This document shows, piece by piece, positions 62 to 19,614 of a DNA stretch of 24,000 nucleotides (its first letter is position 1; every line of letters starts with the position of its first letter). The DNA comes from an uncultured Burkholderiales bacterium. GTDB taxonomy: Bacteria > Actinomycetota > Acidimicrobiia > IMCC26256 > JAMXLJ01. Both the position numbers and the translations under genes were made by a program. The stretch lies in assembly GCA_964548555.1 (NCBI GenBank), contig CAZJSY010000002.1, forward strand, positions 1 to 24,000. Direction: 5' to 3'. The notes below the pieces were generated by a model. The model saw nothing but the letters and a program-made list of their open reading frames with translations, was not told where the DNA came from and ran no database searches.

Positions 62-609
62 TACTCCGGCGACCTCGACACCACCACCCCGGCCGGGCGA
101 AGGATGGTCTCGTCGGTGCCGTAGCCGGGGCGCACGGCGGCCACGACGGTGCGGTCGGGCGCGTCCGCCTCGACGGTGCTCACCGCTTCGTCACGTGCGG
201 GATCGAACGGCCGGCCCACATCGTCGAAGCGCGGGAAGCCGAGGCGCGCGAGCACGGCGATCGCCTGGTCGAGGACCGCGCGGAGGCCCTGGACGAGCGG
301 GCCCTCCAAATCCTCGGCGTGCTGCAGCGCGCGCTCCAGGTTGTCGACGACGGGCAGCCACTCACTCGCGGTGCGACCGCGCTCGTCCGCGCGCTCGCGC
401 GCGAGCTCACGCGCGTACCGCTTCCGGAGGTTGTCGAGGTCGGCGAGCGCGCGGGTCAGTTGGTCCTCGAGTCGTGCGACCACCTGATCCGCCGGAGGCC
501 CGCTCCGAGTGGCGTCCGCCGACTCCGCCGGCTCAGGGAGGTCCCGGTCCGCGGCGTCGGCGACGGTCGGTCCCGAACGCTCGCCCTGGTTCACGGTGCT
601 GTCACTCAT
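61..609 (-). CDS. grpE: Nucleotide exchange factor GrpE (182 aa)
   Basis: ATG at 609..607, 30 nt downstream of the dnaK stop. Disordered acidic/Pro N-terminus, then a coiled-coil LEDQLTRALADLDNLRKRYARELARERADE and WLPVVDNLERAL typical of GrpE. The position between dnaK and dnaJ fits. Confidence 0.9.
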   Translation of the reverse strand: MSDSTVNQGERSGPTVADAADRDLPEPAESADATRSGPPADQVVARLEDQLTRALADLDNLRKRYARELARERADERGRTASEWLPVVDNLERALQHAEDLEGPLVQGLRAVLDQAIAVLARLGFPRFDDVGRPFDPARDEAVSTVEADAPDRTVVAAVRPGYGTDETILRPAGVVVSRSPE

Positions 610-639
610 GTCGATCCGTTCCCGTGTCGCGGTCGCGTG

Positions 640-2547
640 TCACCCAACGGTGAAGTCGGCGTCGATGACGTCGTCGTCGCCGGACCCCGGCTGGCCTCCT
701 CCGCCGTCGCCGGGCTGGCCGGGTGCCGGACCTGCGCCCGCTCCGGCGCTTGCACCTGCGGCCGCTTGGAGTGAGTGGAAGACCTGCTGCAGCTCGCCCG
801 TCAGCTCGCGCACGCGATCGAGTGGGGCCTGGTCGCGTACGGCCTGGCGCGCGTCCGCGATGAGCATCTCGGCGCGCGAACGTTCGTGCGACGGGACGGC
901 GTCTCCGAGCTCGCCGAGTCGCCGCTCCACCTGATACGCGACGCTGTCGAGCTCGTTGCGGGCATCGACCTCCTGGCGCAGTCGCTGGTCCTCGGCGCGG
1001 TTGCGCTCCGCATCCTGGATCATCCGCTCGACCTCGGCCTGGTCGAGGTTCGAGCTCTCGCTGATCGTGATGCGCTGCTCCGCTCCGGTGTCCTTGTCAC
1101 GCGCGGAGACGTTCACGATGCCGTTCGCGTCGATGTCGAAGGTCACGTCGATCTGCGGCTCACCACGGCGCGCGGGCCGTATTCCCTCGAGCCGAAAGCG
1201 ACCCAGCGCGCGGTTGTCGGCCGCGCGCTCGCGTTCACCCTGCAGGACGACGATGTCGACGGCGGACTGGTTGTCCTCTGCGGTGCTGAACGTCTCCGTT
1301 CTCCGTGCCGGGATGGTGGTGTTGCGCTCGATGACCCTCGTGTTCACGCCACCGAGGGTCTCGAGGCCGAGCGACAGCGGTGTCACGTCGAGCAGCAGGA
1401 CGTCCTGGACCTCGCCCTTGAGCACACCGGCCTGGATGGCCGCACCGACCGCGACGACCTCGTCGGGGTTCACGGTCATGTTCGGGTCCTTGCCACCGGT
1501 GAGCCGGCGCACGAGGTTCTGCACCGCGGGCATGCGGGTGGAGCCGCCCACGAGGATGACCTCGTCGATGTCGTCGGCCGTCACCTTCGCGTCGGCCATC
1601 GCCTGCTGGACCGGGCCGAGACAGCGCTCGAGCAGGTCGGAGGTGAGCTGTTCGAACGTCGCACGCGTGACCGTCATCACGAGGTGCTTGGGCCCGTTCG
1701 CGTCCGCGGTGATGAACGGCAGGTTCACCTGGGTCTGGGTGACCGCCGAGAGCTCGATCTTCGCCTTCTCGGCCGCCTCGACGAGCCGCTGCAGCGCCTG
1801 CGGGTCCTGACGCAGGTCGATGCCGTTCTCGCGCTTGAACTCCTCGGCCATGTAGTCGACGAGGCGGCGGTCGAAGTCGTCGCCACCGAGGTGGGTGTCG
1901 CCCGACGTGGCGCGAACCTCTACGACGCCGTCGCCGACGTCGAGAATGCTCACGTCGAAGGTGCCGCCGCCGAGGTCGAAGACGAGCACCGTCTCGCTCT
2001 GCTTCTTGTCGAGTCCGTAGGCGAGTGCGGCGGCGGTCGGCTCGTTGATGATGCGCAACACCTCGAGACCGGCGATGCGGCCTGCGTCGCGTGTCGCCTG
2101 TCGTTGTGCGTCGTTGAAGTACGCGGGCACGGTGATGACCGCCTCGGTGACGCGCTCGCCGAGGAACTTGCCCGCGTCGTCGGCGAGCTTGCGCAGGATC
2201 ATCGCCGAGACCTCTTCCGGCGAGACGAGCTTGTCGCGCACCTTGAAGCGGACCGTCCCGTCGGGCCCTTCCACGACGTCGAACGTCACCGTCTCGGCCT
2301 CGTTCTTGACCTCCGCGTAGCGGCGGCCGATGAAGCGTTTCGCCGAGTAGATGGTGCCCTTCGGGTTGAGGACGGCCTGCCGCTTGGCGAGTTGACCGAC
2401 GAGCCGTTCACCGTTCTCGAGGAACGCGACGACCGACGGTGTCGTCCGCGAACCCTCCGCGTTCGGGATGACGACCGGCTGTCCCGACTCGACGGTCGCG
2501 ATCACCGAGTTCGTCGTGCCCAGGTCGATGCCGACTGCCTTGGCCAT
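640..2547 (-). CDS. dnaK: Hsp70 chaperone DnaK (635 aa)
   Basis: The track ORF 640..2640 contains [17 protein letters not shown]..., [10 protein letters not shown] and [14 protein letters not shown], which are Hsp70 signatures. The true start is taken as the ATG at 2547..2545 (residue 32 of the track ORF), preceded by GGGAGGA with a 6-nt spacer. Gly/Asp-rich C-terminal tail. Confidence 0.97.
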
Positions 2548-2655
2548 CGTCTGTCCTCCCTCGCGAGCGCGCGCGAAAAGCCACGAGCCCGTCCACACGC
2601 GGTGCCTCCTATGAAAAGCCTCGCCATCGGGGCGCTCCAACTCACCACGCGATCA

Positions 2656-6147: not shown

Positions 6148-7242
6148 TCAGCAGATGCGGGGGAGCGGATCACCGATGAGCAGGTCGACGATGCGCGTGC
6201 CGCCGAACTCCGTGCGCAGCAGCACGAGGCCGGGCGGGTCGTCGCGCACGGTTCCGACTCGCGCCGCGTCACAGCCGAGCGGATGCGAGCGCAGCGCGTC
6301 GAGCGCCGCGTCCGCCTCGTTGCCGTCGACGACCGTGACGAGGCGGCCCTCGCACGCGACGTACAGCGGGTCGATGCCCAGCAGTTCGCACGCTCCCCGC
6401 ACCTCGGGCCGCACCGGCACCGCGGCCTCGTCGAGCACCACCGCGACGCCTGCCGCGGCCGCCACCTCGTTCGCGATGGTCGCGACGCCGCCCCGTGTCG
6501 CGTCGCGCAGGCAGCGGACGCCGGGCGCTGCGTCAAGCAGCTGCGCGGCGATCGCGGCGAGCGGCGCGGTATCGGAGCGCAGGTCGGACTCCAGTGCGAG
6601 CTGCCCGCGGGCGAGCATGATGGTGACGCCGTGGTCGCCGATCGGTCCCGACACGATGACGGCGTCTCCGGGACGTGCGTTCGCCGCCGCGAGCGTGACG
6701 GGCCGTTCGAGGACGCCGACCCCCGCGGTGGTGATGTAGCAGCCGTCGGCCTTGCCCCGTTCGACCACCTTGGTGTCGCCCGTGACGATCTGCACACCCG
6801 CCCGGGCGGCGGCGGTCGCCATCGACGACGCGATGCGGCGCAGATCGGCGACGGGAAAGCCCTCTTCGAGGACGAATGCCGCCGAGAGATGCAGCGGCCG
6901 CGCGCCCGACATCGCGAGGTCGTTCACCGTTCCGTTGACCGCGAGGTCGCCGATGTCGCCGCCGGGAAAGAAGAGTGGCGACACGACGAACGAGTCGGTG
7001 GTGAACGCGAGCCGCCGGCCGTCGACGGAGAACACGGCCTGGTCCTCGAGCGGTTCGAGCAACGGATTGCGGAACGCGGGGAGGAACAGCGCCTCCACGA
7101 GCGTGCGGCTGGCCTTCCCGCCCGCGCCGTGGGCCATGCTGATGCGCTCCTCACGGATCGCGGGAACCCGCCGTCGAGCACGCTCGATGCGCTCCAGAAC
7201 CTGTTGCTGCCTCGCGTCGATGTTCATGGCTCCCGGACTCAT
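6148..7242 (-). CDS. hypE: Hydrogenase maturation protein HypE (364 aa)
   Basis: Contains MAHGAGGKASRTLVE, DLAVNGTVNDLAMSGA and IVTGDTKVV, and ends with the diagnostic C-terminal PRIC. The start is chosen as ATG 7242..7240, which overlaps the hypD TGA (7241..7239) as ATGA. An alternative ATG is at 7227. Confidence 0.93.
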   Translation of the reverse strand: MSPGAMNIDARQQQVLERIERARRRVPAIREERISMAHGAGGKASRTLVEALFLPAFRNPLLEPLEDQAVFSVDGRRLAFTTDSFVVSPLFFPGGDIGDLAVNGTVNDLAMSGARPLHLSAAFVLEEGFPVADLRRIASSMATAAARAGVQIVTGDTKVVERGKADGCYITTAGVGVLERPVTLAAANARPGDAVIVSGPIGDHGVTIMLARGQLALESDLRSDTAPLAAIAAQLLDAAPGVRCLRDATRGGVATIANEVAAAAGVAVVLDEAAVPVRPEVRGACELLGIDPLYVACEGRLVTVVDGNEADAALDALRSHPLGCDAARVGTVRDDPPGLVLLRTEFGGTRIVDLLIGDPLPRIC

Positions 7243-8363
7243 CTGACCGTGGCGCGCACGCGGGTGCGGGTGAAGCGGCCGAAGTTGTAGAACGCCGCGC
7301 ACGCGCCCTCCGACGAGACCATGCACGTGCCGATCGGAGTCTCCGGTGTGCATGCCGTGCCGAAGACCTTGCACTCCCATGGTTTGATCGCGCCCTTCAG
7401 CACCTCGCCACACTGGCACGCTTTGGGATCGGCGACCCGGTTGCCCGGTATGTCGAAAATGCGCTCCGCGTCGAAGCGCGCGTACGCGTCACGCATCTGG
7501 AGCGCCGAATGGGAGATGAACCCGAGGCCGCGCCATTCGAAGTAGGGCCGAAGCTCCATGACCTCGGAGATGACGCGCAGCGCCTTGGGGTTTCCGTTCC
7601 ATGGCACGACCCGCCGGTACTGGTTCTCCACCTCCACGCGGCCGTCGTGCAACTGGTCGAGCAACATCGCGATCGCCTGCAGGATGTCCAACGGCTCGAA
7701 ACCCGCGGTCACGAGCGGACGTCCGTACTGGCGCACCACGAACTCGTATGGGCGGCATCCGATCACGGTGGAGACGTGACCGGGGCCGAGGAACCCGTCG
7801 AGACGAAGGTCGGGGGAGTCGAGGATGGCCTTGATCGCGGGCACGATCGTGACGTGATTGCAGAACACGGAGAAGTTGGTGACGTCCTCGTTCGCGGCCC
7901 GCAACACGGTCATCGCGGTCGACGGCGCGGTGGTCTCGAACCCGATCGCGAGGAAGACGACCCGGCGATCGGGGTTCTCGCGTGCGATGCGGAGCGCGTC
8001 GAGCGGTGAGTACACCATCCGGACGTCGGCTCCACGCGCGCGTGCGTCGAGGAACGAGCCCTTTCCGCCGGGCACGCGCATCATGTCGCCGAAGGTCGTC
8101 AGGACCACGTCCGGTTGCTCCGCGATCGCCATCGCATCGTCGATGCGCCCCATCGGGATGACGCAGACCGGGCAGCCCGGACCGTGTACCAGTGTCACGG
8201 TCTCCGGGAGGTAGTCCTCGATTCCGTGCTTGTAGATCGTGTGCGTATGGCCCCCGCACACCTCCATGAACTTGTACTCGCGTCCCGGTTCACAACGTGA
8301 AGCGATCTGGGCTGCGAGCGCCTGAGCCTTTCCGGCGTCGCGGTACTCGTCGACGTAGCGCAC
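7239..8363 (-). CDS. hypD: Hydrogenase maturation Fe-S protein HypD (374 aa)
   Basis: MRYVDEYRDAGKAQALAAQI, MEVCGGHTHTI, HGPGCPVCVIP and GFETTAPSTA are HypD motifs. GTG start 8363..8361 is preceded by AAGGAGGT with a 4-nt spacer. Confidence 0.95.
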   Translation of the reverse strand: MRYVDEYRDAGKAQALAAQIASRCEPGREYKFMEVCGGHTHTIYKHGIEDYLPETVTLVHGPGCPVCVIPMGRIDDAMAIAEQPDVVLTTFGDMMRVPGGKGSFLDARARGADVRMVYSPLDALRIARENPDRRVVFLAIGFETTAPSTAMTVLRAANEDVTNFSVFCNHVTIVPAIKAILDSPDLRLDGFLGPGHVSTVIGCRPYEFVVRQYGRPLVTAGFEPLDILQAIAMLLDQLHDGRVEVENQYRRVVPWNGNPKALRVISEVMELRPYFEWRGLGFISHSALQMRDAYARFDAERIFDIPGNRVADPKACQCGEVLKGAIKPWECKVFGTACTPETPIGTCMVSSEGACAAFYNFGRFTRTRVRATVR

Positions 8364-8380
8364 GACACCTCCTTCGATCG

Positions 8381-8653
8381 CTATTCCGGCGCGCTCGCCC
8401 GCAGCGCGTCGAGCTCGTCGGCATATGCCTGCCCGATGCTCTCGAGGAACTCCAACGCGTCCGCGGCCTCACGTTCGTCGATCTTCGAGAGTGCGAAGCC
8501 GACGTGGATCAACACCCAGTCGCCGGGAACGAGCGACTCTCCCTCCAGCAAGCCGATGTTGATCGTCCGCCGCACGCCGCTGACCGCAACGGTTGCCAGA
8601 TCGGGCTCCTCGTCGCGCAGCTCGACGATCTCACCGGGTATTCCGAGACACAC
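8381..8653 (-). CDS. hypC: Hydrogenase assembly chaperone HypC/HupF family (90 aa)
   Basis: GTG at 8653..8651 gives (M)CLGIPGEIVEL...GDWVLIHVGFALSKIDEREA, the HypC signature with Cys at position 2. GAGGAGG lies 4-5 nt upstream. The 134-aa track ORF is an upstream extension. Confidence 0.9.
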   Translation of the reverse strand: MCLGIPGEIVELRDEEPDLATVAVSGVRRTINIGLLEGESLVPGDWVLIHVGFALSKIDEREAADALEFLESIGQAYADELDALRASAPE

Positions 8654-8670: not shown

Positions 8671-8778
8671 CTACATCGCCCGGATCTTGAGGTAACGCTC
8701 GAGGTCGGACCGCTGCCGGTACGCGACGTAGGCCGCCAACCCCAGCAGTGCGAGCATCATGAGCTTTCCCATCCGCAT
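8671..8778 (-). CDS. 35-aa single-pass membrane micro-protein MRMGKLMMLALLGLAAYVAYRQRSDLERYLKIRAM (not in the ORF track)
   Basis: Hand translation of the reverse complement of 8671..8778. ATG 8778..8776 overlaps the endopeptidase TGA (8780..8778) as TGATG. TAG stop at 8673..8671, 17 nt before the hypC GTG. 32 of 35 codons end in G/C. It has a hydrophobic helix followed by a basic amphipathic tail. It resembles what I recall as the DUF6893 small-protein family of actinobacterial hydrogenase loci (unverified). Confidence 0.6.
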   Translation of the reverse strand: MRMGKLMMLALLGLAAYVAYRQRSDLERYLKIRAM

Positions 8779-9281
8779 CACTCACCGTCCTTGTGTCGGA
8801 CCAGCTGTCTCGTCTCGGCCTCGAGGAGGTCGCGTACGACCGCCACCGCTTCGTCGACGGCCCGTTCCACGGCCGCGCTGAGACCGATGCCCTCGCCCAC
8901 GTCGGCCGGCTCGCATCCCACGACGAGCGTGACCGGTGGGCGCGCCTCGAGCGCGGTGAGGAGCGTGAGCACCGACACCGGTTCGAGCGAATGGCCGTCG
9001 CACATCGGGGGGTTCTGCTCCGCGGCCGCGTCGAGCTCCGCGAAGTCGGGTTGGAACACGCAGACGGTTCCGGGTTCGACGCCGCGGGGCAGCGCGTCGA
9101 CCACGATCAACGCGTCGTAGCCGTCGAGGAGCTGGTACGCAAGGTGGATGCTGCCCGTCCCGACGTCGAGAACCTCGACACCTTCGGGGAGCTGCTCGCG
9201 TGCGAGTCGTCCGACGACCTCGACGCCGAACCCGTCGTCGCCGAGGAAGATGTTGCCGACGCCCGCGACCAGGAGTCTCAC
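8778..9281 (-). CDS. hupD: [NiFe]-hydrogenase maturation endopeptidase, HybD/HupD/HyaD family (167 aa)
   Basis: GTG 9281..9279 gives (M)RLLVAGVGNIFLGDDGFGVEV..., IVVDA and CDGHSL, which match endopeptidase motifs. The GTG overlaps the upstream TGA (9280..9278) as GTGA. The 378-aa track ORF is an Arg-rich upstream extension. Confidence 0.9.
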   Translation of the reverse strand: MRLLVAGVGNIFLGDDGFGVEVVGRLAREQLPEGVEVLDVGTGSIHLAYQLLDGYDALIVVDALPRGVEPGTVCVFQPDFAELDAAAEQNPPMCDGHSLEPVSVLTLLTALEARPPVTLVVGCEPADVGEGIGLSAAVERAVDEAVAVVRDLLEAETRQLVRHKDGE

Positions 9282-10618
9282 AGCGGTTGCACCTCGTCGG
9301 GTGAGAAGTAGAGGAACCGGCCGTGCCACTGCAGGATCTCGGACGCGGGGTCGTCGTCGACCGTGACCGCGAGGTAGTGCCGGTCGTCGACGTCGGCCAG
9401 CACCGCTTCGACCGTCGCGACGCGCCCCTGGAGGAACATGTCCTGCGCGTCGGCGCGTTGCGATCCCGGGTGCAGCCGGACCCGTGATCCGCGGGCGAGC
9501 ACGACCGAACCGACGACCACGGAGTCCGTCTCGGGCGAAACGGTCGTGTCGCTCCCGGGATCCCACCACGGAACCGATGCGTCCGAAGGCTGCGGCGGCG
9601 CGCTGGTCGAGGTGGGCGTGACCGAGCGGATGGCGCCGTGGAGCCGTTCGAGCCACTCGGGCGGCATCGCATCGACCCGGTCGACGACCGCGGCCGCGCG
9701 TGGATCGGTCGCGCGGGCCGCTTCCTTCTCGTCGTCGGTCAGCGCCATCGTGCGCAACGTCAGGATCTCGTCGATCTCGGTGCCGTCGAAGAGCTCGCCG
9801 GCACTCTCCGGCGCGATCTCGGGCCGGTCGTAGAGGATGATCGGAGACGACAGCACGACCTCGCCGCCTTCGCCGTCGTCGACCAGCACGGGATACGTGT
9901 GGAGGTTGGCGCACGCCTGCGCCTCGTCACGAGCCCACTCCGGTGGGTCGAGGAGCGAGATGAAGCGCCCACCGTCCAGCGCGAGCAACACGTGGGTGGA
10001 GACGAGCGCGCGTCGTAAAGCGGTGTCGCGACCGATGGAAGGTTCAACCCGCGTCGCGTTCACCACCCGGATCCCGAGTCGGACGGCACCGAACGGGCCC
10101 GGAGTCCGCTCGGCACGAGCGCGTACGACACCCCTGACGGGCAGCTGCTCGCGCACGATACGGCCCACCTCGTGTCCGGTTCCGTCGGTCACCGGCTCCT
10201 CGTCGCGGCCCGCGGCGATCTCGAAGGGTGTTTCCCGTTCCTGGTCGAAGAGCGCCGCGAGCTCGAACGACACGTCCACCTCACGTGCGACGCCTTCGTC
10301 CCACGTGACGTACTGGTGGCCGTCGACGACGAGCGAGTCGACGGCTGTGAACCCTGACTCGACGAGCTGTTCGACGCGGCGCGCCTGCACCTGCAGGAAG
10401 CGCACACGGACGTTCAGCGTCGCGTCTTCGGCTGCTTCCAGCAGCAGCTCGGTGTACGAGAAGGTCGTCTCTCCGGCGGCCTCCGCGTAGCCCGACGGTG
10501 CGAGCACACCGAACTGCCAGCGCACCTGGTTCTTCTGCGCGGTGCTGCGGTACGGATAGAGCAGGTACCCCTCGAAGAGCACCGCGTCCGCGACCTTCGT
10601 CGCCGCGTCGAACCTCAC
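9278..10618 (-). CDS. Conserved hydrogenase-cluster protein of unknown function (446 aa)
   Basis: GTG 10618..10616 overlaps the upstream TGA (10617..10615) as GTGA. It starts (M)RFDAATKVADAVLFEGYLLYPYRSTAQKNQVRWQFGVL. A Ser/Thr/Pro linker (TPTSTSAPPQPSDAS) precedes an approximately 80-aa C-terminal module (...GSRVRLHPG...GRVATVEAVLADVDDRHYLAVTVDDDPA...GRFLYFSPDEVQPL). No cofactor motif recognised. Confidence 0.8.
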   Translation of the reverse strand: MRFDAATKVADAVLFEGYLLYPYRSTAQKNQVRWQFGVLAPSGYAEAAGETTFSYTELLLEAAEDATLNVRVRFLQVQARRVEQLVESGFTAVDSLVVDGHQYVTWDEGVAREVDVSFELAALFDQERETPFEIAAGRDEEPVTDGTGHEVGRIVREQLPVRGVVRARAERTPGPFGAVRLGIRVVNATRVEPSIGRDTALRRALVSTHVLLALDGGRFISLLDPPEWARDEAQACANLHTYPVLVDDGEGGEVVLSSPIILYDRPEIAPESAGELFDGTEIDEILTLRTMALTDDEKEAARATDPRAAAVVDRVDAMPPEWLERLHGAIRSVTPTSTSAPPQPSDASVPWWDPGSDTTVSPETDSVVVGSVVLARGSRVRLHPGSQRADAQDMFLQGRVATVEAVLADVDDRHYLAVTVDDDPASEILQWHGRFLYFSPDEVQPL

Positions 10619-11268
10619 CGGGTCTCCTCCCCGGCTTCCTTGAGGAGCCGCTCGACCGCGTCGTCCCACGTGGCCATCGCTTCGCGGCCCCGGTAGCGGC
10701 GGAGCGCGTCGATGGTTTCGCGCCGCATCAGGAGCCAGCCCTGGTTCGGGAAGAACGAGTCGATCATCTCGCGCCACACCGCCACGGGGAGCCGGACCCG
10801 CGTCTCGTGGTGCCACGGGATCTGGTGCGCGCTGAAACCGCTGTCGCCCTGCGCGAAGACCGTTCCGGAGAAGAGGAGCACCAGTGGGATCTCGCCGCCT
10901 TCCAGCGAGGCGAAGTACTTACCCCACGCGACCTCGAGGTCGTAGCTGCACGGCACGCTCAGCGTGGTCTCGACGTGGTGCGTGAATCCGGGCACGGTGT
11001 GCGACACGGATGCGAACTGCATCGGGTGCACCGTGTCGCCCCAGTGCTCCGGTACACCGAACAGGTCGTACAACGCGGTCTGCTCGGCCGCGGTGTACCG
11101 GCGCCGGCCCGGTTCGATGCGGATCTGGCAGCGCAGCGCCATCGCGTGGATCCGCTCACCCGTGCTCTCGTTGATCCGCAGACCGAAGGAGAGGGTCGGT
11201 GCGGCGGCGTACCGGTCGCTGCGTACGTCGACGCACTCGAACGACAGCTCGAGCGGCACCACGGTCAT
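10615..11268 (-). CDS. Conserved hydrogenase-cluster protein of unknown function, DUF6084-like (217 aa)
   Basis: ATG 11268..11266 overlaps the upstream TGA (11267..11265) as ATGA. It starts MTVVPLELSFECVDVRSDRYAAAPTLSFGLRI. The family name is from memory only. The 395-aa track ORF is an Arg-rich extension running through the upstream gene. Confidence 0.8.
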   Translation of the reverse strand: MTVVPLELSFECVDVRSDRYAAAPTLSFGLRINESTGERIHAMALRCQIRIEPGRRRYTAAEQTALYDLFGVPEHWGDTVHPMQFASVSHTVPGFTHHVETTLSVPCSYDLEVAWGKYFASLEGGEIPLVLLFSGTVFAQGDSGFSAHQIPWHHETRVRLPVAVWREMIDSFFPNQGWLLMRRETIDALRRYRGREAMATWDDAVERLLKEAGEETR

Positions 11269-12474: not shown

Positions 12475-14274
12475 CTACCGGTTGTACGGGAGCATCGTGG
12501 GTGAGTGCACCTGCTCGAGCACCTTGCCCTTGCCGAGGTACATGTGCACGCCGCACGGCAGGCATGGGTCGAAGCTGCGGACGGCCCGCATCACGTCGAT
12601 GCCCTTGAAGTTCTCGGGCGGGTTCTCCTCGAAGATCGGCGTGTTCTGCACCGCGTCCTCGTACGGTCCCGGCGTGCCGTAGACGTCCCGGACGCTGCCG
12701 TTCCACGGCGTGGGCGGGTACGGGTGATAGTTCGCGATCTTTCCGTCCCGTATCACCATGTGGTGCGACAGCACGCCGCGCACGGCTTCGGTGAATCCGC
12801 AACTGATCGCCTCTTCGGGCACGACGAAGGGCTCCCACGTCTTGGTGTGTCCGGCGCGCACCTCAGAGAGCGCTTTCTCCGCGAAGTGCAGCGCGCACGC
12901 GGCCGAGTATGCCTGGAAGTAGGTGCGGGCGCGGTCGCGTTCGATGGCGTTGCTCCACTTCGGGATCTTCCACTCGAAGTGGGCCTCGGGCTTCGTCGCG
13001 GTGCGCGGCAGGTTGATCTCCACGCTGTTGCCGGTCGCCTTCACGTACCCGATGTCGACGAGTCCCGCGAGGGCCGTGGCCCAGAGCCGAGCGAGGGGGC
13101 CACCCCCGGTGTCGAGCGGCAGGTAGTCCTTCCCGTCGAACCACCGGGGAGACATCACCCAGCTGTACTTGTCGTCGAAGTCCCGCTTCTGCGGCTTGGG
13201 GATCGTGTGCTGGTTCCACGGATGACGGCGATCGACGGGATTCCCGAGCGGGTCGTGCGTGACGAAGCGCTCCTTGTCCTCCCAGTCCTCGTAATAGGAG
13301 CTGCCGAGCAGGATCCGGAGGCCGAGGTTGATGTCGACGAGGTCGGTCGTCACGAGACGTCCGTCGACCACGACACCGGGCGTCACGAACATCTTGCGAC
13401 CCCAGTTCGACATGTTCTCGTACGTGAAGTCGCAGTGCTCCGGGTCGTTGAGGCTGCCCCAGCATCCGAGGAGCACCCGGCGCTGACCGACCTGCTCGTA
13501 ACCGGGGATGGCTTCGTAGAAGAAGTCGAACAGGTCGTCGTGCATCGGTACGACACGCTTCATGAACTCGACGTAGCGCATCAAGCGCGTCAGGTAATCG
13601 GTGAAGACCTGCACCGTCCCCGATGTCCCGACACCGCCCGGATAGAGCGTCGACGGGTGAACGTGGCGACCCTCCATGAGGCAGAACATCTCTCGTGTGC
13701 TGCGACTCACCTGGAGCGCTTCGCGGTAGAACTCACCCTCGATCGGGTTGAGCGATCGCATGATGTCGCCGATCGTGCGATACCCGTGCTCGGCGGCGTG
13801 CGGTGCCTCGGTGCGGTTCGCCTGCTCGAGCACACCGGGGTTGGTCTCGCCGACCATCTTCTCGCAGAAGTCGACCCCGACGAGGTTCTCCTGAAAGATG
13901 TTGTGGTCGAACATGTACTCCGCGGCCTCGCCGAGATTGATGATCCACTCGCCGAGGTGCGGTGGTCGCACTCCGTAGGCCATGTTCTGGTTGTAGACGG
14001 AGCACGTCGCGTGGTTGTCACCGCAGATCCCGCAGATCCGGCTCGTGATGAAATGCGCGTCGCGGGGGTCCTTACCTTTCATGAAGATGCTGTAGCCCCG
14101 GAAGATCGACGACGTGCTGTAGCACTCGACGACCTTCTTCTGCGCGAAGTCGATCTTGGTGTAGATGCCGAGGCTCCCGACGATGCGGGTGATGGGATCC
14201 CACGCCATCTCGACGACGTTGGTGCCGGATTCACCCGGTCCGCTCCCACCTTCACGCCGCTCGGTGATGGTCAT
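12475..14274 (-). CDS. hhyL: [NiFe]-hydrogenase large subunit, group 1h/5 (599 aa)
   Basis: The N-terminal Ni-binding motif is ITSRICGICGDNHA. The C-terminal motif is SFDPCLPCGVH, followed by a 22-aa tail (MYLGKGKVLEQVHSPTMLPYNR) that would be the endopeptidase-cleaved extension. ATG 14274 is preceded by AGAGGAGGGA. These L1/L2 forms are the ones described for group 5/1h enzymes. Confidence 0.97.
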   Translation of the reverse strand: MTITERREGGSGPGESGTNVVEMAWDPITRIVGSLGIYTKIDFAQKKVVECYSTSSIFRGYSIFMKGKDPRDAHFITSRICGICGDNHATCSVYNQNMAYGVRPPHLGEWIINLGEAAEYMFDHNIFQENLVGVDFCEKMVGETNPGVLEQANRTEAPHAAEHGYRTIGDIMRSLNPIEGEFYREALQVSRSTREMFCLMEGRHVHPSTLYPGGVGTSGTVQVFTDYLTRLMRYVEFMKRVVPMHDDLFDFFYEAIPGYEQVGQRRVLLGCWGSLNDPEHCDFTYENMSNWGRKMFVTPGVVVDGRLVTTDLVDINLGLRILLGSSYYEDWEDKERFVTHDPLGNPVDRRHPWNQHTIPKPQKRDFDDKYSWVMSPRWFDGKDYLPLDTGGGPLARLWATALAGLVDIGYVKATGNSVEINLPRTATKPEAHFEWKIPKWSNAIERDRARTYFQAYSAACALHFAEKALSEVRAGHTKTWEPFVVPEEAISCGFTEAVRGVLSHHMVIRDGKIANYHPYPPTPWNGSVRDVYGTPGPYEDAVQNTPIFEENPPENFKGIDVMRAVRSFDPCLPCGVHMYLGKGKVLEQVHSPTMLPYNR

Positions 14275-14328: not shown

Positions 14329-15399
14329 TCACCACTGCGGCTGGTACCCCGTTCGCAGCTCCTGACCCGGCGTGCGCCACTTCGGTTCCTTGTCGACCGT
14401 CTTGGCCGTGATCGACCGCAGCGCCCGGATGAGCGGCCCGTACAGCATCCCGGTGACGCCGGTCGACACCGTGCTGCCGGGTGGCTCGTCCATGAACGGC
14501 ATGAACTTGTCGGGGAAGCCCGGCATCGTGCACGCGATGCAGATGCCGCCGACGTTCGGGCAGCCGCCGACTCCGTTGATCCATCCCCGCTTGGGGACGT
14601 TGCACTTCACCACCGGGCCCCAGCAGCCGAGCTTCACGAGGCACTTCGGTGAGCCGTACTCCACCGCGAAGTCACCTTGCTCGTAGAAGCCGGCCCGGTC
14701 GCAGCCCTCGTGAACCGTCGCGCCGAAGAGCCACGTCGGGCGCAGCGCGGAGTCGAGGGGCGGAGCCGGCGAGGCGCCCGTCACGTGGTACAGCAGATGC
14801 AGGATCGTCTCCGAAAGGTTGTCCGGATGGATCGGGCAGCCCGGCACGTTGACGATCGGCAACCCGGCCTTCGAGCGCCAGTTCCACCCGAGGTAGTCGG
14901 CGACGCCCATCGCGCCTGTCGGGTTCCCGGCCATCGCGTGGATGCCTCCGTATGCCGCGCAGGTGCCGGCGGCGATGATCGCGGTCGCCTTCGGCGCGAG
15001 ACGATCGATCCACTCGCTGGTCGTCATGGGCTGGCCGGTCTCGGGGTTGTTGCCGAAGCCGCTCCAGTAACCCTCGGGCTTGATCCGCTCGTTGGGTATC
15101 GAGCCCTCGAGCACGAGGACGAATGGCTCGAGCTCGCCGCGGTCGGCTTTGAAGAACCATTCGATGAAGGTGTCGGCACCCTGTTCGGGGCCACACTCGA
15201 AATCGATCAGGGGCCAATGGACCGCGATCTTCGGCAGGCCGGGCAGTGCACCGAGCACGATCTCCTCGATGCTCGGTTGCGTTGCCGCGGTGAGCGCCAC
15301 CGAGTCGCCGTCGCAACTCAGGCCCGCGTTGATCCAGAGGACATGGACCGTCATGTCCTGCGGGTCGGGTCTGGCCTGCTGCTCGAGCCGGGTGACCAT
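14329..15399 (-). CDS. hhyS: [NiFe]-hydrogenase small subunit, group 1h/5, no Tat signal (356 aa)
   Basis: VHVLWINAGLSCDGDS, AAGTCAAYGGIHA, NVPGCPIHPD, KLGCWGPVVKCNVP and GGCPNVGGICIACTMPGFPDKF are small-subunit Fe-S ligand regions. The start is chosen as ATG 15399..15397 with GGAGGT 7 nt upstream; alternatives are 15447 and 15354. No RRxF twin-arginine leader is present, as expected for group 1h. Confidence 0.93.
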   Translation of the reverse strand: MVTRLEQQARPDPQDMTVHVLWINAGLSCDGDSVALTAATQPSIEEIVLGALPGLPKIAVHWPLIDFECGPEQGADTFIEWFFKADRGELEPFVLVLEGSIPNERIKPEGYWSGFGNNPETGQPMTTSEWIDRLAPKATAIIAAGTCAAYGGIHAMAGNPTGAMGVADYLGWNWRSKAGLPIVNVPGCPIHPDNLSETILHLLYHVTGASPAPPLDSALRPTWLFGATVHEGCDRAGFYEQGDFAVEYGSPKCLVKLGCWGPVVKCNVPKRGWINGVGGCPNVGGICIACTMPGFPDKFMPFMDEPPGSTVSTGVTGMLYGPLIRALRSITAKTVDKEPKWRTPGQELRTGYQPQW

Positions 15400-15417
15400 G
15401 CGGGCCACCTCCCCCCT

Positions 15418-15440
15418 CCGCCCGGCCTGAAGCCGGGCGG
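15418..15440 (-). promoter_or_regulatory. GC-rich hairpin CCGCCCGGC-CTGAA-GCCGGGCGG abutting the hhyS Shine-Dalgarno sequence
   Basis: Read directly: a perfect 9-bp stem with a 5-nt loop. On the minus-strand transcript, the 3' arm is followed immediately by AGGGGGGAGGTGGCCCGC-ATG. It sits in the 90-nt gap after the SIS-fusion stop (15490). No U-tract follows. Confidence 0.4.
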
Positions 15441-15489
15441 TGCGCACGCCCGTTCTTTCTTCGAATGTGAGAGAGCTGCCGCTGCGCTT

Positions 15490-16875
15490 TCAGCGAAGTG
15501 CGGCGTGTGTCAACTGCCAAAGCACGTTGTAGACACTGGTTTGGGCTTCCTGCACGCGATGAACCGACGACGAATCGACCACGAACAAGTGGTCACAGCC
15601 CACGTCCATCATGTTCCCACCGTCGCTGCCGGCCAATCCGATTGTTTCCAGGCCGCGTGCCCGCGCGTCGCGAAGCGCACGGTTCACGTTCTCCGAGCCG
15701 CCGCTCGTCGAAATGCCGAACGCCATGTCGTGATTCCGAGTCAGCGCGGCGAGCTGACGCGCGTAGACGACATCGAAGCTGACGTCGTTCGCGAGTGCCG
15801 TCACAGTCGCGGCGTCGTCGGGCAACGAGACTGCAGGAAGGCCGCGGTCGTCCGCGCTCGTGAACAGGCGGCACAGCGCCAGCGCGTCGGTGCTGCTGCC
15901 GCCGTTTCCGAACGCGAACAGCGTCCCACCGTCTGCGAAGGCCCGCGCCATCGAGGTTGCGCACGCGATCAGCGCGCCGGCGTTCCCGTCGAGCACGTGC
16001 TCCCGCAGCACGCCGATCTCGCCGATCTTCTGTTCCGTGGAGTCGCGGACCTGGAGGTCGAGATCCTCGCCGCGGGCCTCGTTCCCGTACAGGAAGGGAT
16101 ACAGCGGCGCGAGGCCGCCGGGGTCGTCGACGCTCGGCGCTGCGATACCGATCGCCTCCGCCGCGTGCACGAGCACGCGGTCGCCGACCTCCACGTCGAC
16201 GAGGGCCACGCTGATCTCCTCATGGCCACCGGGCGTCTCGACACGTGCCATGGCGTCGGGGAGCATCTCCACGACCATGGCGGTGATGGCCTCGTCGGCG
16301 CACGCCGGACACGCTGAGCGGTTTCCTGCATCGACACGCGCGGAGCCCTCGAGGAACACGTGTACGAGCTCCCAGAGGATGTGGTACGCGGTGACCTGGA
16401 GCTCGCGAGCGATGCAACGGTCGGGTGCAGGCGCTCGCACGAGGTACTTCGCCTCGCCGGCGGCGACGCCGGGCCCACCGAGCAGCGCCACGGTCAGGGC
16501 TCCCGATTCCGCCCCGACGTGCATCGCGTTGCTCGCCACAGGGTCGGAGGCTTCGGTCGTGATCGTCATCACGATGTCGTCGGCGCGGGCGAGGACGCGC
16601 AGGGCGGCGAGATCCGCGACTGCGAGCGCGGGCAGGGCCCGCTTTCCGACGATCACAGGATGGACGAATTCCACGGCGACGTGGCGCGCGTCCGCCTCCG
16701 ACAATCCGCTACCGGCGACGAGGAGCCGGCCTCCCGCTCGGAAGCGATCTGCCATGGCGCGACACGCCTGCGTGAGTGCGTCGGCCTGGCCGAGGAACTC
16801 TGCACTCGCGGCACGTCGCTTCGCGCGGGCGTCCGCGAGGACGTCCACCACTTGACGCGGAGACGGCTCGCCCAT
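15490..16875 (-). CDS. Tri-domain fusion: degenerate SIS domain, HypC/HupF-like OB domain, GmhA-like SIS domain (461 aa)
   Basis: Residues about 265-461 match the phosphoheptose-isomerase (GmhA/DiaA) SIS pattern (FAFGNGGSSTDA, GISTSGGSENVNRALRDARARGLETIGLAGSDGG, HRVQEAQTSVYNVLWQL). Residues about 1-190 repeat the fold with degraded motifs (LVAGSGLSEADARHVAVEF, MTITTEASD, ARELQVTAYHILWELV). Residues about 196-250 (CPACADEAITAMVVEMLPDAMARVETPGGHEEISVALVDVEVGDRVLVHAAEAIG) align to HypC (C...V.E...A.V...G....V.L.LV..V.VGD.VLVHAGFAI). Confidence 0.85.
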   Translation of the reverse strand: MGEPSPRQVVDVLADARAKRRAASAEFLGQADALTQACRAMADRFRAGGRLLVAGSGLSEADARHVAVEFVHPVIVGKRALPALAVADLAALRVLARADDIVMTITTEASDPVASNAMHVGAESGALTVALLGGPGVAAGEAKYLVRAPAPDRCIARELQVTAYHILWELVHVFLEGSARVDAGNRSACPACADEAITAMVVEMLPDAMARVETPGGHEEISVALVDVEVGDRVLVHAAEAIGIAAPSVDDPGGLAPLYPFLYGNEARGEDLDLQVRDSTEQKIGEIGVLREHVLDGNAGALIACATSMARAFADGGTLFAFGNGGSSTDALALCRLFTSADDRGLPAVSLPDDAATVTALANDVSFDVVYARQLAALTRNHDMAFGISTSGGSENVNRALRDARARGLETIGLAGSDGGNMMDVGCDHLFVVDSSSVHRVQEAQTSVYNVLWQLTHAALR

Positions 16876-16885
16876 CGACGAGCGG

Positions 16886-16969
16886 CTAGGGCCGGTGCTC
16901 GTTGATACGCGCCGCGATCACGAAATAGACGACAAAGCCGATGGCGATGAACGCATAGAGGTAGCGCAT
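16886..16969 (-). CDS. 27-aa hydrophobic micro-ORF MRYLYAFIAIGFVVYFVIAARINEHRP at the head of the hydrogenase operon (not in the ORF track)
   Basis: Hand translation of the reverse complement of 16886..16969. ATG 16969..16967 is preceded by AAGAGG with a 5-6 nt spacer. TAG at 16888..16886 lies 10 nt before the SIS-fusion ATG (16875), which itself lacks a Shine-Dalgarno sequence. 23 of 27 codons end in G/C. One predicted TM helix. Speculative. Confidence 0.4.
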   Translation of the reverse strand: MRYLYAFIAIGFVVYFVIAARINEHRP

Positions 16970-17359: not shown

Positions 17360-18034
17360 TCAGGCGCTCGGTACGACCACGCCGGCCTCGTAGGCGACGA
17401 CGACGGCCTGTGCCCGGTCCCGCACGCCCAACTTCATGAAGACCCGCTTGACGTGTGTCTTGACGGTCTCGACGCTCAACGTGAGCCACTGCGCGATCTC
17501 GCGGTTCGACAGGCCCCGCGCGATCAGCACGAGAACCTCCCGTTCCCGGTCGGTGAGGCGGTCGAGTGTCTCCGCGCTCGTCGGTGACGACGACCGCTTC
17601 GCGAACCCGGCGACGAGACGGCGGGTGATCTCCGGAGTGAGCAGTGCCTCGCCACGGGCGACGACGCGCACCGCGTCCACGAGGTCCTCCGCTCGGGCCC
17701 GCTTCAACATGAATCCGCTCGCGCCGGCGCGCAGGGCCCGGTACACGTACTCGTCGTAGTCGAACGTCGTGAGGACGATCACGCGTGGCGAGGGCTGTGG
17801 CGAGCTGCGCTCGGTGATGCGGCGGGTCGCCTCGATGCCGTCGAGCTCCTGCATCTGCACGTCCATCAGCACGACGTCGGGCGCGATGTCGGCGGCCAGA
17901 GTGCAGGCCGCGACGCCGTTGTCGGCTTCGCCGACCACCGCGATGTCGGGCTCGGCGTCGAGGATCGTGCGCAGCCCGATGCGCGTGGGAACGTCGTCCT
18001 CGATGACGAGCACGCGCACGGGGGCTTCGTTCAC
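17360..18034 (-). CDS. NarL/LuxR-family two-component response regulator (224 aa)
   Basis: The receiver domain has VRVLVIEDD and VVLMDVQMQELDG. The C-terminal LuxR-type HTH has LTDREREVLVLIARGLSNREIAQWLTLSVETVKTHVKRVFMKLGV. GTG 18034..18032 overlaps the kinase TGA (18033..18031) as GTGA. Confidence 0.93.
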   Translation of the reverse strand: MNEAPVRVLVIEDDVPTRIGLRTILDAEPDIAVVGEADNGVAACTLAADIAPDVVLMDVQMQELDGIEATRRITERSSPQPSPRVIVLTTFDYDEYVYRALRAGASGFMLKRARAEDLVDAVRVVARGEALLTPEITRRLVAGFAKRSSSPTSAETLDRLTDREREVLVLIARGLSNREIAQWLTLSVETVKTHVKRVFMKLGVRDRAQAVVVAYEAGVVVPSA

Positions 18035-19614
18035 GACTGTTTCACCGGGATCCGGGCGCGCACCAGGAATCCACCCCTCCCGTCGGGACCGATCTCGATC
18101 TCGCCTCCGAGGACCGATGCGCGCTCGCGCATCCCGATGATCCCGCGGCCGTCGGTGGCATCGCCGGCGGCCGCGCGACCGTCGTTGATCACCACGAGCG
18201 CCAGGGTCTCCGGCTCATAGGCAACCTCCACATGCGCTCGCGGCTCGGCCGTGTGCTTCACCACGTTGGTGAGGGCCTCTTGCACGATCCGGAACGCCGA
18301 CCACTCCACCAGACGGGGAAGGGGCCGCCGGTCGCCGCTGATGGTCAGGTTCACGTCGACGCCGGCCCGCCGCAACGCGCCGACGAGCTCGGGCAACTGG
18401 GCGATCGAGCGACTGGGCTCGAGGTCGGGGGAGCTGTCGACGAGGCCGAGCGCAGCGTCGAGGTCACCGAACGCATCCCGTCCTGTGCTCTCGATCGACT
18501 CGATCAGCTCACGGGCCAGCGGGGGATCCCGGTCGAGCACGCGTCGCGCCCCACCCGCCTGCAACACGATCGCGTTCAGCGCGTGCCCGACGATGTCGTG
18601 TACCTCGCGGGCGATGCGCCGGCGTTCCTCGGCCGCGGCGTCGAGCGCGTCGACGCGCGCGAGCAGTCGCGCGGCCTGGGCGTTGCGCAGCGACCGCTGG
18701 GCACGGTTCCGCTCGCTCACCTCGATGGCCAGCATGAGCGCCGAGAGCAGCGCGACCGCCAGGAACAGCTGGAGGTACAGCAGTTGGGTGGCGGTGCTCG
18801 ACTCCGCCACGATGGAGTCCCTCGCGTTGCCCGACGCGACCGCGACGTCGGCGGCGACGGCCATGGCCAGGCCCGTCGTCGTGAGCACGGAGAATCCGCC
18901 GCGAAGCGCCGCCCACACGAGCACCGGCAGGACGATGTAGATGAGCGACTGGTGCCAGACGAGGATCGTCGTCAACGCAACGCCGGCGGCGAGTGCCGGC
19001 AGCGCGACGACCTCGATCCACGACACCGTAGGGTCGGTGTGGTGGCGCACCTGCTCCACCCAGGCGAGGATGCAGGTGCCGACCACCAAGACGCCCAGCG
19101 CGTCGCCGGTCCACCATTTCGTCGCGATCGACACGGCGGAATCGGACGATCCGGCAAGCGACGCGACCGTTGCGCCGATCACCGCCCCGACCACGGGGCC
19201 TACCACGACCGCGTAGACGACGTAGCGCGTGAAGTACCGGCGCATCCTCGTGTCGACCCGGTAGGTCTTCCGGAGAAGCGTCGCGCCGACGTACGGCTCG
19301 GCGGCATTCGCGACTGCGAACCCGAATGCCATCGCAAGGGATTGTCCGTGCTGGACGTCGACCGCGATCTCCGCGAGGACGATCACCGCGAGGATCCACG
19401 GCCACCGCTCCTCGGGGAGGACGGCGAGCGCCGCGAGCGTGACCCCGGCTGCGGGAAAGAACGCCACGCCCGTGGCGGCCTGGTGCTCGAGCCAGAACGC
19501 ACTCTCCGCACCGAGGACGTAGAGGATGCCGACCCCCAACACCAGGAGGGCAAAGCGCGACGCGCGCAGCTGCATCCCCGACGTCGATCTCAGGACGCCG
19601 CTGTCGCTACCCAC
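18031..19614 (-). CDS. Sensor histidine kinase: MASE1-like polytopic membrane domain, HisKA_3, HATPase_c (527 aa)
   Basis: The N-terminal approximately 300 aa hold about 8 hydrophobic helices with MASE1-like features (GVAFFPAAGVTLAALAVLPEERWPWI). This is followed by the H-box ERRRIAREVHDIVGHALNAIVLQ and the ATPase region FRIVQEALTNVVKHT...GRGIIGMRERASVLGGEIEIG. GTG 19614 is preceded by GGAAGGAAG with a 5-nt spacer. Confidence 0.9.
   Translation of the reverse strand: MGSDSGVLRSTSGMQLRASRFALLVLGVGILYVLGAESAFWLEHQAATGVAFFPAAGVTLAALAVLPEERWPWILAVIVLAEIAVDVQHGQSLAMAFGFAVANAAEPYVGATLLRKTYRVDTRMRRYFTRYVVYAVVVGPVVGAVIGATVASLAGSSDSAVSIATKWWTGDALGVLVVGTCILAWVEQVRHHTDPTVSWIEVVALPALAAGVALTTILVWHQSLIYIVLPVLVWAALRGGFSVLTTTGLAMAVAADVAVASGNARDSIVAESSTATQLLYLQLFLAVALLSALMLAIEVSERNRAQRSLRNAQAARLLARVDALDAAAEERRRIAREVHDIVGHALNAIVLQAGGARRVLDRDPPLARELIESIESTGRDAFGDLDAALGLVDSSPDLEPSRSIAQLPELVGALRRAGVDVNLTISGDRRPLPRLVEWSAFRIVQEALTNVVKHTAEPRAHVEVAYEPETLALVVINDGRAAAGDATDGRGIIGMRERASVLGGEIEIGPDGRGGFLVRARIPVKQS

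Follow-up and report, generated by a model that had tools for sequence, protein, structure and literature searches.

The hydrogenase locus and its fusion gene

The window analysed here, i.e. the whole stretch of 24,000 nucleotides from the start of contig CAZJSY010000002.1 (assembly GCA_964548555.1), harbors a [NiFe]-hydrogenase locus. The subject of this study is the gene located directly upstream of hhyS, a position confirmed from the open reading frames (ORFs) of the window, which encodes a protein of 461 amino acids (aa) with a HypC-like domain between two SIS domains, designated SIS-N and SIS-C. A first-pass annotation, made from the letters alone, had proposed this tri-domain architecture, and both the Pfam domains and the AlphaFold2 (AF2) model show that it was right. 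Judged from the gene arrangements described below, the protein is no isolated invention but represents a conserved three-module cassette in its fully fused form, and we rank it as the rarest ORF arrangement of this cassette.

The Pfam scan of the complete protein assigned SIS_2 (PF13580) to two stretches (8.4e-23), HupF_HypC (PF01455) to residues 196-242 (31.5 bits; gathering score 28.5) and SIS (PF01380) to residues 375-423. The AF2 model of the full-length protein, based on 54 homologues in the alignment, has a predicted local distance difference test score (pLDDT) of 89.5 and a predicted template modelling score of 0.85. It consists of two alpha/beta domains flanking a five-stranded beta unit at residues 197-244; residues 185-194, the linker that bears CPAC, are below pLDDT 50. 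All motifs quoted in the annotation are present, namely AGSGLS (54-59), ITTEASD (105-111), CPAC (189-192), VGDRVLVHAAEAI (230-242) and the GmhA-like motifs of SIS-C, GNGGS (323-327), ISTSGGSENV (388-397) and VQEAQ (441-445). The features of the fusion gene, with the underlying evidence in brackets (HMM, hidden Markov model; OB, oligonucleotide/oligosaccharide-binding), are as follows:

15490..16875, minus strand: whole gene, 461-aa fusion SIS-N / CxxC-HypC-like / SIS-C (ORF with ATG start, Pfam and NCBIfam domains, AF2 model)
16345..16818, minus strand: SIS-N module, residues ~20-177 (SISN HMM 185 bits; residue mapping)
16681-16683, minus strand: H65 of SIS-N, GmhA-type metal/catalytic residue (mapping over 120 members)
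16669-16671, minus strand: E69 of SIS-N, GmhA-type metal/catalytic residue (same mapping)
16381-16383, minus strand: H165 of SIS-N, GmhA-type metal/catalytic residue (same mapping)
16132..16317, minus strand: HypC-like OB barrel, residues ~187-248, five strands, no C-terminal helix (PF01455; HYPCX HMM 107 bits; Foldseek)
16294..16311, minus strand: C189-P-A-C192-A-D194, C-x-x-C-x-D motif in the flexible linker (invariant in 11/11 inserts)
16165-16167, minus strand: H237 of the HypC-like barrel (His in 145/149 representatives)
16156-16158, minus strand: E240 of the HypC-like barrel (Glu in 129/149 representatives)
16084..16104, minus strand: LYPFLYG, family-specific motif opening the SIS-C module (Y259 and P260 invariant; translations)
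15496..16092, minus strand: SIS-C module, residues ~262-460 (SISC HMM 292 bits; phmmer; Foldseek; residue mapping)
15895-15909, minus strand: GNGGS of SIS-C (residue mapping)
within 15685-15714, minus strand: STSGGS phosphate loop of SIS-C (residue mapping)
15550-15552, minus strand: Q442 of SIS-C (residue mapping)

For the fusion protein, 4652 relatives were found among 5.8 billion proteins searched; where these are named, they are labelled "D-sedoheptulose 7-phosphate isomerase". Tandem-SIS proteins of ~420 aa with a linker of 6-43 residues account for 109 of the 120 best homologues, and an insert of ~60 aa is present in only 11 of them. The closest relative in the genome set by SIS sequence stems from a metagenome-assembled genome (MAG) of the Frankiaceae (locus L040; 63% in the best segment). 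The single-ORF form is kept in five protein clusters of 60-67% identity (P0002-P0006), and fused proteins that are 64-67% identical are located on three independent contigs, one from an NCBI assembly and two from JGI metagenomes, with an identical synteny of MASE1 kinase, LuxR regulator, fusion gene, hhyS and hhyL. Because five clusters and three contigs retain the fused ORF, the single reading frame taken as real in the annotation is not explained by a sequencing frameshift.

The order of genes on the minus strand is fusion gene, hhyS, hhyL, NifU-like gene, DUF5947, DUF6084, a conserved hypothetical gene, a HycI-type protease gene, hypC, hypD and hypE, and hypF lies on the plus strand. The window thus contains the hydrogenase and hyp genes hhyS, hhyL, hupD, hypC, hypD, hypE and hypF. 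Neither hypA nor hypB was detected among the window ORFs scanned; both are present inside the cluster in loci L001 and L003, on Cupriavidus necator plasmid pHG1 and in Mesorhizobium. The standalone hypC reported in the annotation is real. The genes to which we refer below are:

14329..15447, minus strand: hhyS, [NiFe]-hydrogenase small subunit, next downstream of the fusion gene (Pfam Oxidored_q6, NiFe_hyd_SSU_C); its true start is likely the ATG near 15399, which follows GGAGG
12475..14274, minus strand: hhyL, group 1h/5 large subunit (R. eutropha 5aa5_C HofG, 1094 bits)
8381..8653, minus strand: canonical hypC, MCLGIPG... (Pfam 82 bits; NCBIfam TIGR00074 76.5 bits)
7239-8363, minus strand: hypD, after the canonical hypC and followed by hypE

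The HypC-like module and the three-module cassette

The middle segment is HypC/HupF-like by sequence as well as by fold, and the HypC-like fold expected within residues 190-255 was indeed found. Scanned on its own, the insert reaches 35.7 bits against PF01455, and all 11 inserts match this family when scanned alone (best E 6.3e-11). The AF2 model of the isolated insert (pLDDT 91.9) has its best Foldseek match in the Protein Data Bank (PDB) with HypC of Thermococcus kodakarensis from the HypCDE complex (3vyt_A; E 5e-4; TM 0.87 on target, root-mean-square deviation 1.4 A, 31% identity), and generic OB folds such as those of proteasomal ATPase OB domains and IF1 rank behind it. Residues C189, C192, D194, H237 and E240 (window numbering) are invariant across the 11 inserts.

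The essential cysteine of HypC is located at position 2 and becomes N-terminal once the methionine is removed (PMC12134894). In a profile alignment to T. kodakarensis HypC, D194 takes the position of this cysteine and C192 precedes D194 by two residues; H237 aligns with the histidine of HypC. The HypC-like domain remains below the NCBIfam HypC cutoff of 48 bits (TIGR00074), with 17 bits for the whole protein and 21 bits for the domain alone, and shows no pairwise similarity to the canonical HypC of the cluster (BLASTP E = 11). The latter value also rules out that the insert is a recent copy of the resident hypC. Because of the score below the cutoff and the lack of pairwise similarity, the insert is assigned, at the sequence level, to a distinct HypC subfamily whose members are mostly free-standing.

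Searching 1.84 billion representative proteins with a profile of the insert yielded 1015 matches at E <=1e-3, 217 of them at <=1e-10. The best matches are overwhelmingly free-standing proteins of 60-115 aa with the subfamily pattern C-[IV]-T-C-[SAG]-D ... S-V-A-L-V ... G-D-x-[VI]-L-V-H-A-x-E-A-I; two-domain forms, i.e. SIS-N plus HypC-like and HypC-like plus SIS-C, occur as well. Conservation among 149 representatives is nearly complete (Cys 132/132, Cys 136/136, Asp 138/139, His 145/149), and a third cysteine is located within 10 residues upstream of the CxxC motif in 95 of 132 representatives. The annotation had attributed the internal position of the HypC cysteine to the fusion, but the C-x-x-C-x-D motif is also internal in the free-standing relatives, where it starts a median of 20 residues from the N-terminus (120 proteins). 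A median of only eight residues follows the barrel in the 149 representatives, which accordingly lack the C-terminal helix typical of HypC.

A second, more divergent CxxC-type HypC (CITCGDVAV...HCRD...VGDHLLVHAGVAL) was observed in the Frankiaceae MAG at positions 8682-9236 (minus strand) of locus L040, adjoining the canonical hypC; the SIS cassette of this MAG has no HypC-like module. This divergent copy suggests that CxxC-HypC comprises at least two subtypes.

The distribution of the modules was investigated by scanning one genome per species, which revealed 579 relatives. The best 80 loci were taken with 10-kb flanks and represent Amycolatopsis, Streptosporangium, Micromonospora, Pseudonocardia, Streptomyces, Mycobacterium, Thermoleophilia, Acidimicrobiales, Chloroflexota and Gemmatimonadaceae. 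Classification of the cassettes was based on three HMMs (SIS-N, HypC-like, SIS-C) applied to the six-frame ORFs of 85 sources. The order SIS-N, CxxC-HypC-like (H), SIS-C is invariant, and the ORF of the window was recovered in precisely this order (SISN 185, HYPCX 107 and SISC 292 bits). The modules are distributed over ORFs as follows:

Three ORFs: 54/85 sources
N-H fused, C separate: 8/85 sources
N separate, H-C fused: 3/85 sources
One ORF: 9/85 sources (the window; L001/L002; six Thermoleophilia/Nocardioidaceae loci)
No H module: 11/85 sources

At the N-to-H junction the start of H overlaps the stop of N by exactly 4 nt in 53 of 56 cases, and the H-to-C junctions are mostly overlaps or short gaps. 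These stop/start overlaps are the reason for regarding the split modules, on sequence grounds, as real and translationally coupled genes, which a single indel would fuse. Single-ORF forms are present in at least two other lineages, namely L001 and the Thermoleophilia group (L012, L019, L025, L038, L039, L042), and a neighbor-joining tree of the concatenated SIS halves, calculated without support values, suggests at least three separate single-ORF origins. A canonical hypC is located immediately upstream of SIS-N in only six of the 80 loci and on a Mycobacterium intracellulare plasmid; that a hypC-SIS unit was duplicated in tandem and so gave rise to the N-H-C order is no more than a weak possibility.

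Hydrogenase or hyp genes are located within 10 kb of the cassette at 74 of 82 distinct loci. The large subunits of the related loci form three bands of identity to HhyL (69-88%, 39-42% and 25-30%), and for this reason the cassette is seen, from sequence comparison, to accompany more than one hydrogenase class, i.e. group 1h, Huc/2a and a third class represented by the 39-42% band. The statement of the annotation that the step implied by the fusion is specific to the hydrogenase class of the window did not hold, since the cassette also accompanies Huc/2a and the third class, and a single-SIS version is found in proteobacterial hyp operons. One example is the plasmid cluster of M. intracellulare with the order hypF, hypC, a gene for a 236-aa protein, SIS-C, hypE, hypC and hypD, whose large subunit matches Mycobacterium smegmatis Huc (7utd) with ~1070 bits and represents group 2a. 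The 236-aa protein consists of SIS-N and CxxC-HypC, and its database name is explained by the fact that Pfam detects only the HypC part.

Proposed composite site and role, and rival explanations

The SIS fold of the protein is matched by GmhA structures (2xbl, 2x3y, 1tk9, 5i01) with Foldseek E-values of ~1e-11 to 1e-9 and a TM of 0.85-0.93 on target; for 2xbl the values are E 5.6e-12 and TM 0.85, and phmmer aligns SIS-C with Burkholderia pseudomallei GmhA at 1e-24. The residues of Escherichia coli GmhA were mapped onto both halves of 120 family members. H61, E65 and H180 are kept in SIS-N of all 120 proteins; in SIS-C, H61 is lost (Asp, Glu or Ala), E65 is lost (Thr or Leu) and H180 is retained in 115 of 120. 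The protein of the window has A333 and L337 instead of H61 and E65 in SIS-C, and N450 instead of H180. Conversely, Q172 is present in SIS-C throughout (120/120) and replaced by Lys or Arg in SIS-N, S55 and D94 are invariant in SIS-C (120/120) and variable in SIS-N, and S119-T120-S121-S124 is complete in SIS-C (120/120) and degenerate in SIS-N, where the phosphate loop of the window reads ITTEASD. Only E173 is universal in both halves (120/120 each). The full set of GmhA residues is absent from each half alone and complete only if SIS-N and SIS-C are combined.

Every GmhA site draws residues from several chains (PMC11056994). The zinc ligands are H61, E65 and H183, contributed by one monomer, as well as Q175 of its neighbor (PMC5387315), and the substrate is contacted by N53, G55, S121-S126 and Q173 of one monomer together with the catalytic Glu of the other (PMC7705670). 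Because the residues kept in the two halves match the sets contributed by neighboring GmhA monomers, SIS-N and SIS-C probably rebuild one complete GmhA-type site, while the reciprocal site would be lost. The proposal of the annotation that the degraded N-terminal SIS copy is a pseudo-enzyme or scaffold accordingly needs revision: its phosphate loop is degenerate, but H61, E65 and H180 are universally kept and the losses of the two halves are complementary.

The unduplicated SIS state exists, as gene content and domain composition indicate, in Proteobacteria. Both C. necator H16 (pHG1) and Mesorhizobium huakuii exhibit the order hypF-hypC-SIS-hypD-hypE-hypA-hypB with one SIS gene between hypC and hypD. 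The two genes are:

C. necator SIS gene H16_RS31885 (L085): NC_005241.1 69693-70382, follows hypC2 and overlaps hypD2 by 4 nt
M. huakuii SIS gene MCHK_8346: single SIS protein inside the hyp operon

Their products are ~42% (C. necator) and ~36% (Mesorhizobium) identical to the SIS-C region, share the N-terminus LYPFLHG and hold both residue sets in one chain (GNGGSSCDA[AS]H[IV]AVEF[LV]HPV, STSGNS, HR[VI]QE). By its numbering H16_RS31885 presumably corresponds to PHG074 (hypC2 = PHG073, hypD2 = PHG075). The SIS gene is missing from the hyp gene lists of two papers on the pHG1 cluster (PMC3702609, PMC4377017), and PMC3702609 does not name PHG074 anywhere. The hyp set of the AH hydrogenase was cloned as hypF3C2D2E2A3B3, without the SIS gene, and the soluble hydrogenase was matured ten-fold less well than with its cognate set (PMC3702609); the combination tested was non-cognate, and nothing about the SIS gene follows from it directly.

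The likeliest role of the fusion protein, as suggested by its genomic context, is that of an accessory factor at the HypC/HypD step, a stage that we propose because the proteobacterial SIS gene lies between hypC and hypD. SIS-N and SIS-C would pair like neighboring GmhA protomers and form a pseudo-dimer, with a composite site built from H65, E69 and H165 of SIS-N and from Q442, GNGGS and the STSGGS loop of SIS-C. This site would bind, and probably act on, a phosphorylated sugar, whereas the reciprocal site would be dead, and a dimer of tandems would correspond to a GmhA-like tetramer in which two sites are live. The HypC-like barrel, in which H237 is kept and the N-terminal cysteine is replaced by an internal C-x-x-C-x-D on a flexible arm, may serve as a metal-binding and/or docking module on HypD or on the large-subunit precursor. 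It would thereby link the SIS enzyme to Fe(CN)2CO assembly at the HypC/HypD stage, or to the precursor itself. The fusion would fix a 1:1:1 stoichiometry, and elsewhere the same parts would form a three-protein complex. This overall account of a hydrogenase-specific accessory (maturation) factor, including composite site and HypC/HypD role, appears to us reasonably probable, and the idea of the annotation that the fusion marks an uncharacterised maturation step is plausible.

Several points weigh against this account. Everything beyond the architecture rests on genomic context and conserved residues. The composite site presupposes that the interface between SIS-N and SIS-C is the Gln-sharing interface of GmhA. 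The window has N450 where 115 of 120 relatives keep the H180 equivalent in SIS-C, a position that would belong to the site thought to be dead. The HypC-like domain is under the NCBIfam HypC cutoff and lacks the N-terminal cysteine that defines HypC chemistry. Furthermore, the module is missing from 11 of the 85 cassettes and is thus not obligatory, a relocated CxxC-type copy is present within 10 kb in only one of ten HypC-less cassettes, and five HypC-less split pairs of SIS-N and SIS-C from Pseudonocardiales have no hydrogenase or hyp gene within 10 kb.

The Pseudonocardiales pairs form a HypC-less clade (L053, L054, L056, L061, L080); they may be paralogues recruited elsewhere or distant from their partners. 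The expectation of a free CxxC-HypC near every insert-less SIS locus was not borne out within the 10-kb flanks of ten such loci, where the only instance is the more divergent copy of L040.

Four rival explanations have to be weighed. The SIS pair could be a non-catalytic scaffold or metabolite sensor that binds a phosphosugar or nothing and gates or organises HypC-type chaperones, e.g. according to carbon status. Proteins of the RpiR/MurR type are SIS phosphosugar sensors, and DiaA is a GmhA-fold protein that does no more than bind DnaA. Matches by fold and by sequence include DiaA, one of the two sites appears clearly dead, the protein is below every GmhA equivalog cutoff, and Hhy-type hydrogenases are starvation-induced (PMC4377017 for AH; PMC6883350 for Hhy). 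However, the H, E, H and Q of GmhA are kept in all 120 members across two polypeptides, which goes beyond the needs of sensing, and the single-SIS proteobacterial forms retain every catalytic residue, so that we consider a scaffold or sensor unlikely. A more far-reaching proposal is that the composite site functions as a metalloenzyme and, in air, produces or activates part of NiFe(CN)2CO, most attractively the CO ligand or a C1 precursor derived from a metal-bound ketose-phosphate enediol, and passes it to an iron held by CxxC and His of the HypC-like domain. Were this true, the iron would receive its ligand before HypCD transfer, in a HypX-independent manner, and the cassette would serve Hhy, Huc and AH. 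The association of the cassette with O2-insensitive hydrogenases of aerobes (groups 1h and 2a), the SIS gene between hypC and hypD at the site of Fe(CN)2CO building, the unresolved metabolic origin of CO outside the HypX route (PMC12134894) and GmhA chemistry via a metal-bound enediol (PMC7705670) speak for it. No precedent was found for CO release by a SIS enzyme, though, and pHG1 of C. necator has HypX (hypX is listed as PHG018; PMC3702609) in addition to the SIS gene, so that the two are not mutually exclusive; we regard ligand synthesis as a speculative and rather improbable function.

An ordinary GmhA of the heptose pathway that merely adjoins hydrogenase genes might be suspected from the family name "D-sedoheptulose 7-phosphate isomerase" in the sources and from the best PDB matches, which are GmhA enzymes. 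Yet the protein reaches only 148.3 bits against the GmhA equivalog TIGR00441 (cutoff 209.45) and also remains below the cutoffs of NF010546, NF001628, NF010547 and the DiaA model NF008138, each of its domains has, by itself, an incomplete site, a HypC-family domain forms part of the chain, and linkage to hydrogenase or hyp genes at 74 of 82 loci extends across phyla. No heptose-pathway genes were detected among the window ORFs scanned. The view of the annotation that this is a protein of the hydrogenase locus and not a housekeeping GmhA is therefore corroborated by the score of 148 versus 209 bits, and a heptose-pathway enzyme is very improbable. Most relatives are split and, with a 4-nt overlap, one indel suffices for a fusion, so that the single ORF might be two or three separate genes joined artificially by misassembly or a frameshift. 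The retention of the ORF in five clusters at 60-67% identity, the identical synteny of three independent contigs from different samples and the single-ORF forms in at least two other lineages make such an artefact hardly credible.

Neighboring genes, earlier reports and known systems

An uncalled hydrophobic ORF of 27 codons (MRYLYAFIAIGFVVYFVIAARINEHRP; 16886-16969, minus strand) stops 10 nt short of the fusion gene's ATG and is preceded by AAGAGG ~9 nt upstream. It has no Pfam match. The peptide is conserved as MRYVYAFIAIAFVVYFVIAARINERRQ in L088 (22/27 identical) and MRYVYAFIPIAFVVYFVIAARINEHRP in L089 (24/27), and at the cut end of L090 its C-terminal portion can still be seen; identity of the neighboring fusion protein in those relatives is only 64-67%. 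The ORF probably encodes a genuine small membrane peptide that belongs to the hhy operon. A MASE1/HisKA_3 histidine kinase (18031-19614, minus strand) and a LuxR-type response regulator (17360-18034, minus strand) are encoded directly upstream of the hhy operon and likewise upstream of the fusion gene in L088 and L089. The pair is a candidate for a dedicated regulator of the Hhy hydrogenase.

Within the operon, the conserved hypothetical protein (ORF 9278-10816, minus strand, 512 aa) belongs to no Pfam or NCBIfam family; the real protein probably comprises ~420-450 aa of the 512-aa ORF. It is syntenic with a 498-aa gene in L003 and with H16_RS31865 of pHG1, located between DUF6084 and the maturation protease. 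On the hypF side the hydrogenase cluster is abutted by dnaK and grpE (61-2640, minus strand). ORF 775-2793 on the plus strand matches PF10712, "NAD-specific glutamate dehydrogenase" (6e-146), and runs antisense to dnaK (640-2640, minus strand; HSP70 825 bits); rather than a gene, it is almost certainly a dnaK shadow ORF.

The [NiFe]-hydrogenases of groups 1h and 2a consume atmospheric H2 and represent the main biological sink of the global hydrogen cycle. They are under development as O2-insensitive catalysts, and the assembly of their cofactor in air is only partly known. The accessory-factor reading, which should be of interest to specialists in hydrogenase maturation, makes three testable statements, namely that the two SIS genes would each encode half of one enzyme-like unit in which a single composite site is formed, that this unit would work with a dedicated and previously undescribed CxxC-type HypC paralogue, and that it would belong to the HypC/HypD step, as its operon position in Proteobacteria indicates. 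Genomically, no argument for the three parts acting as one complex is stronger than their natural three-way fusion, which also offers a convenient single polypeptide for biochemistry. Tractable hosts are C. necator with the single-SIS form on pHG1 and mycobacteria, whose Huc-type clusters contain the cassette.

That loci of groups 1h/5 and 2a contain "gmhA" has previously been published (Eichorst 2018, PMC5900883), including Frankia (PMC11879354, citing Islam 2020) and A. ferrooxidans (PMC7735108), and these reports treat it as a putative phosphoheptose isomerase. The Frankia order "hypC2b, hypothetical protein, gmhA, hypE2, hypC2a, hypD2" (PMC11879354) is matched by the M. intracellulare plasmid, and the gene upstream of gmhA, called hypothetical in that study, is SIS-N fused to a CxxC HypC-like domain in the equivalent M. 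intracellulare locus. Neither SIS nor GmhA proteins appear in a review on the biosynthesis of the [NiFe] cofactor from 2025 (PMC12134894). Full-text searches of the literature turned up no account of the CxxC-type HypC module, the complementary SIS split, the coupled three-gene cassette or the fusion. The occurrence of "gmhA" was thus already known, and what appears to be new in the sequences compared here is the CxxC-type HypC module, the complementarity of the SIS halves, the coupled cassette and its fusion.

Among known systems, GmhA (EC 5.3.1.28; B. pseudomallei 2x3y/2xbl, E. coli 2i22) resembles the fusion protein in the SIS fold of both halves (Foldseek E ~1e-11, TM 0.85-0.93), in the ~31% identity of SIS-C with its GNGGS and S-T-S-G-x-S loops and Q-E motif, and in the metal ligands H, E, H and Q, all of which are located somewhere in the fusion protein. 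GmhA is a homotetramer, however, whereas the present family forms a tandem or heteromer of diverged halves with at most one composite site per N/C pair, is encoded in a hydrogenase locus and not in the heptose pathway, and here bears a HypC-like domain in its linker. The isomerase domain of GlmS likewise combines tandem SIS domains in one chain and is aligned by Foldseek across both (TM 0.5-0.58 on query), but the identity is only 9-12%, its chemistry and partner domain are different and there is no inserted OB domain. E. coli DiaA, which is among the fold and sequence matches, exemplifies a GmhA-fold protein that serves protein binding and not metabolism; it is a homotetramer without a link to hydrogenases, and the fusion family differs from it by keeping catalytic-type residues.

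The HypC/HybG/HupF family (PF01455; T. kodakarensis 2z1c/3vyr-3vyu) shares with the insert the five-strand OB barrel, a score above the Pfam gathering threshold and the motif G-D-x-V-L-V-H-x-x-x-A including the HypC histidine. The insert differs by the absence of the N-terminal Met-Cys, in whose place it has the internal C-x-x-C-x-D, and of the C-terminal helix. The SIS proteins of C. necator and Mesorhizobium share LYPFL[HY]G and AVEF[VL]HPV and are encoded directly after a HypC gene, but their one SIS domain with both residue sets is presumably homo-oligomeric, the partner is a canonical HypC (MCLGIPG) and there is no fusion. Finally, the published "gmhA" genes of group 1h/5 and 2a loci, matched here by family name and by the order of genes, share both the type of SIS gene and the genomic context and correspond to the ~420-aa tandem-SIS genes and split SIS genes of these loci, whereas the fusion protein of the window represents the minority form with an insert (11/120 best homologues).

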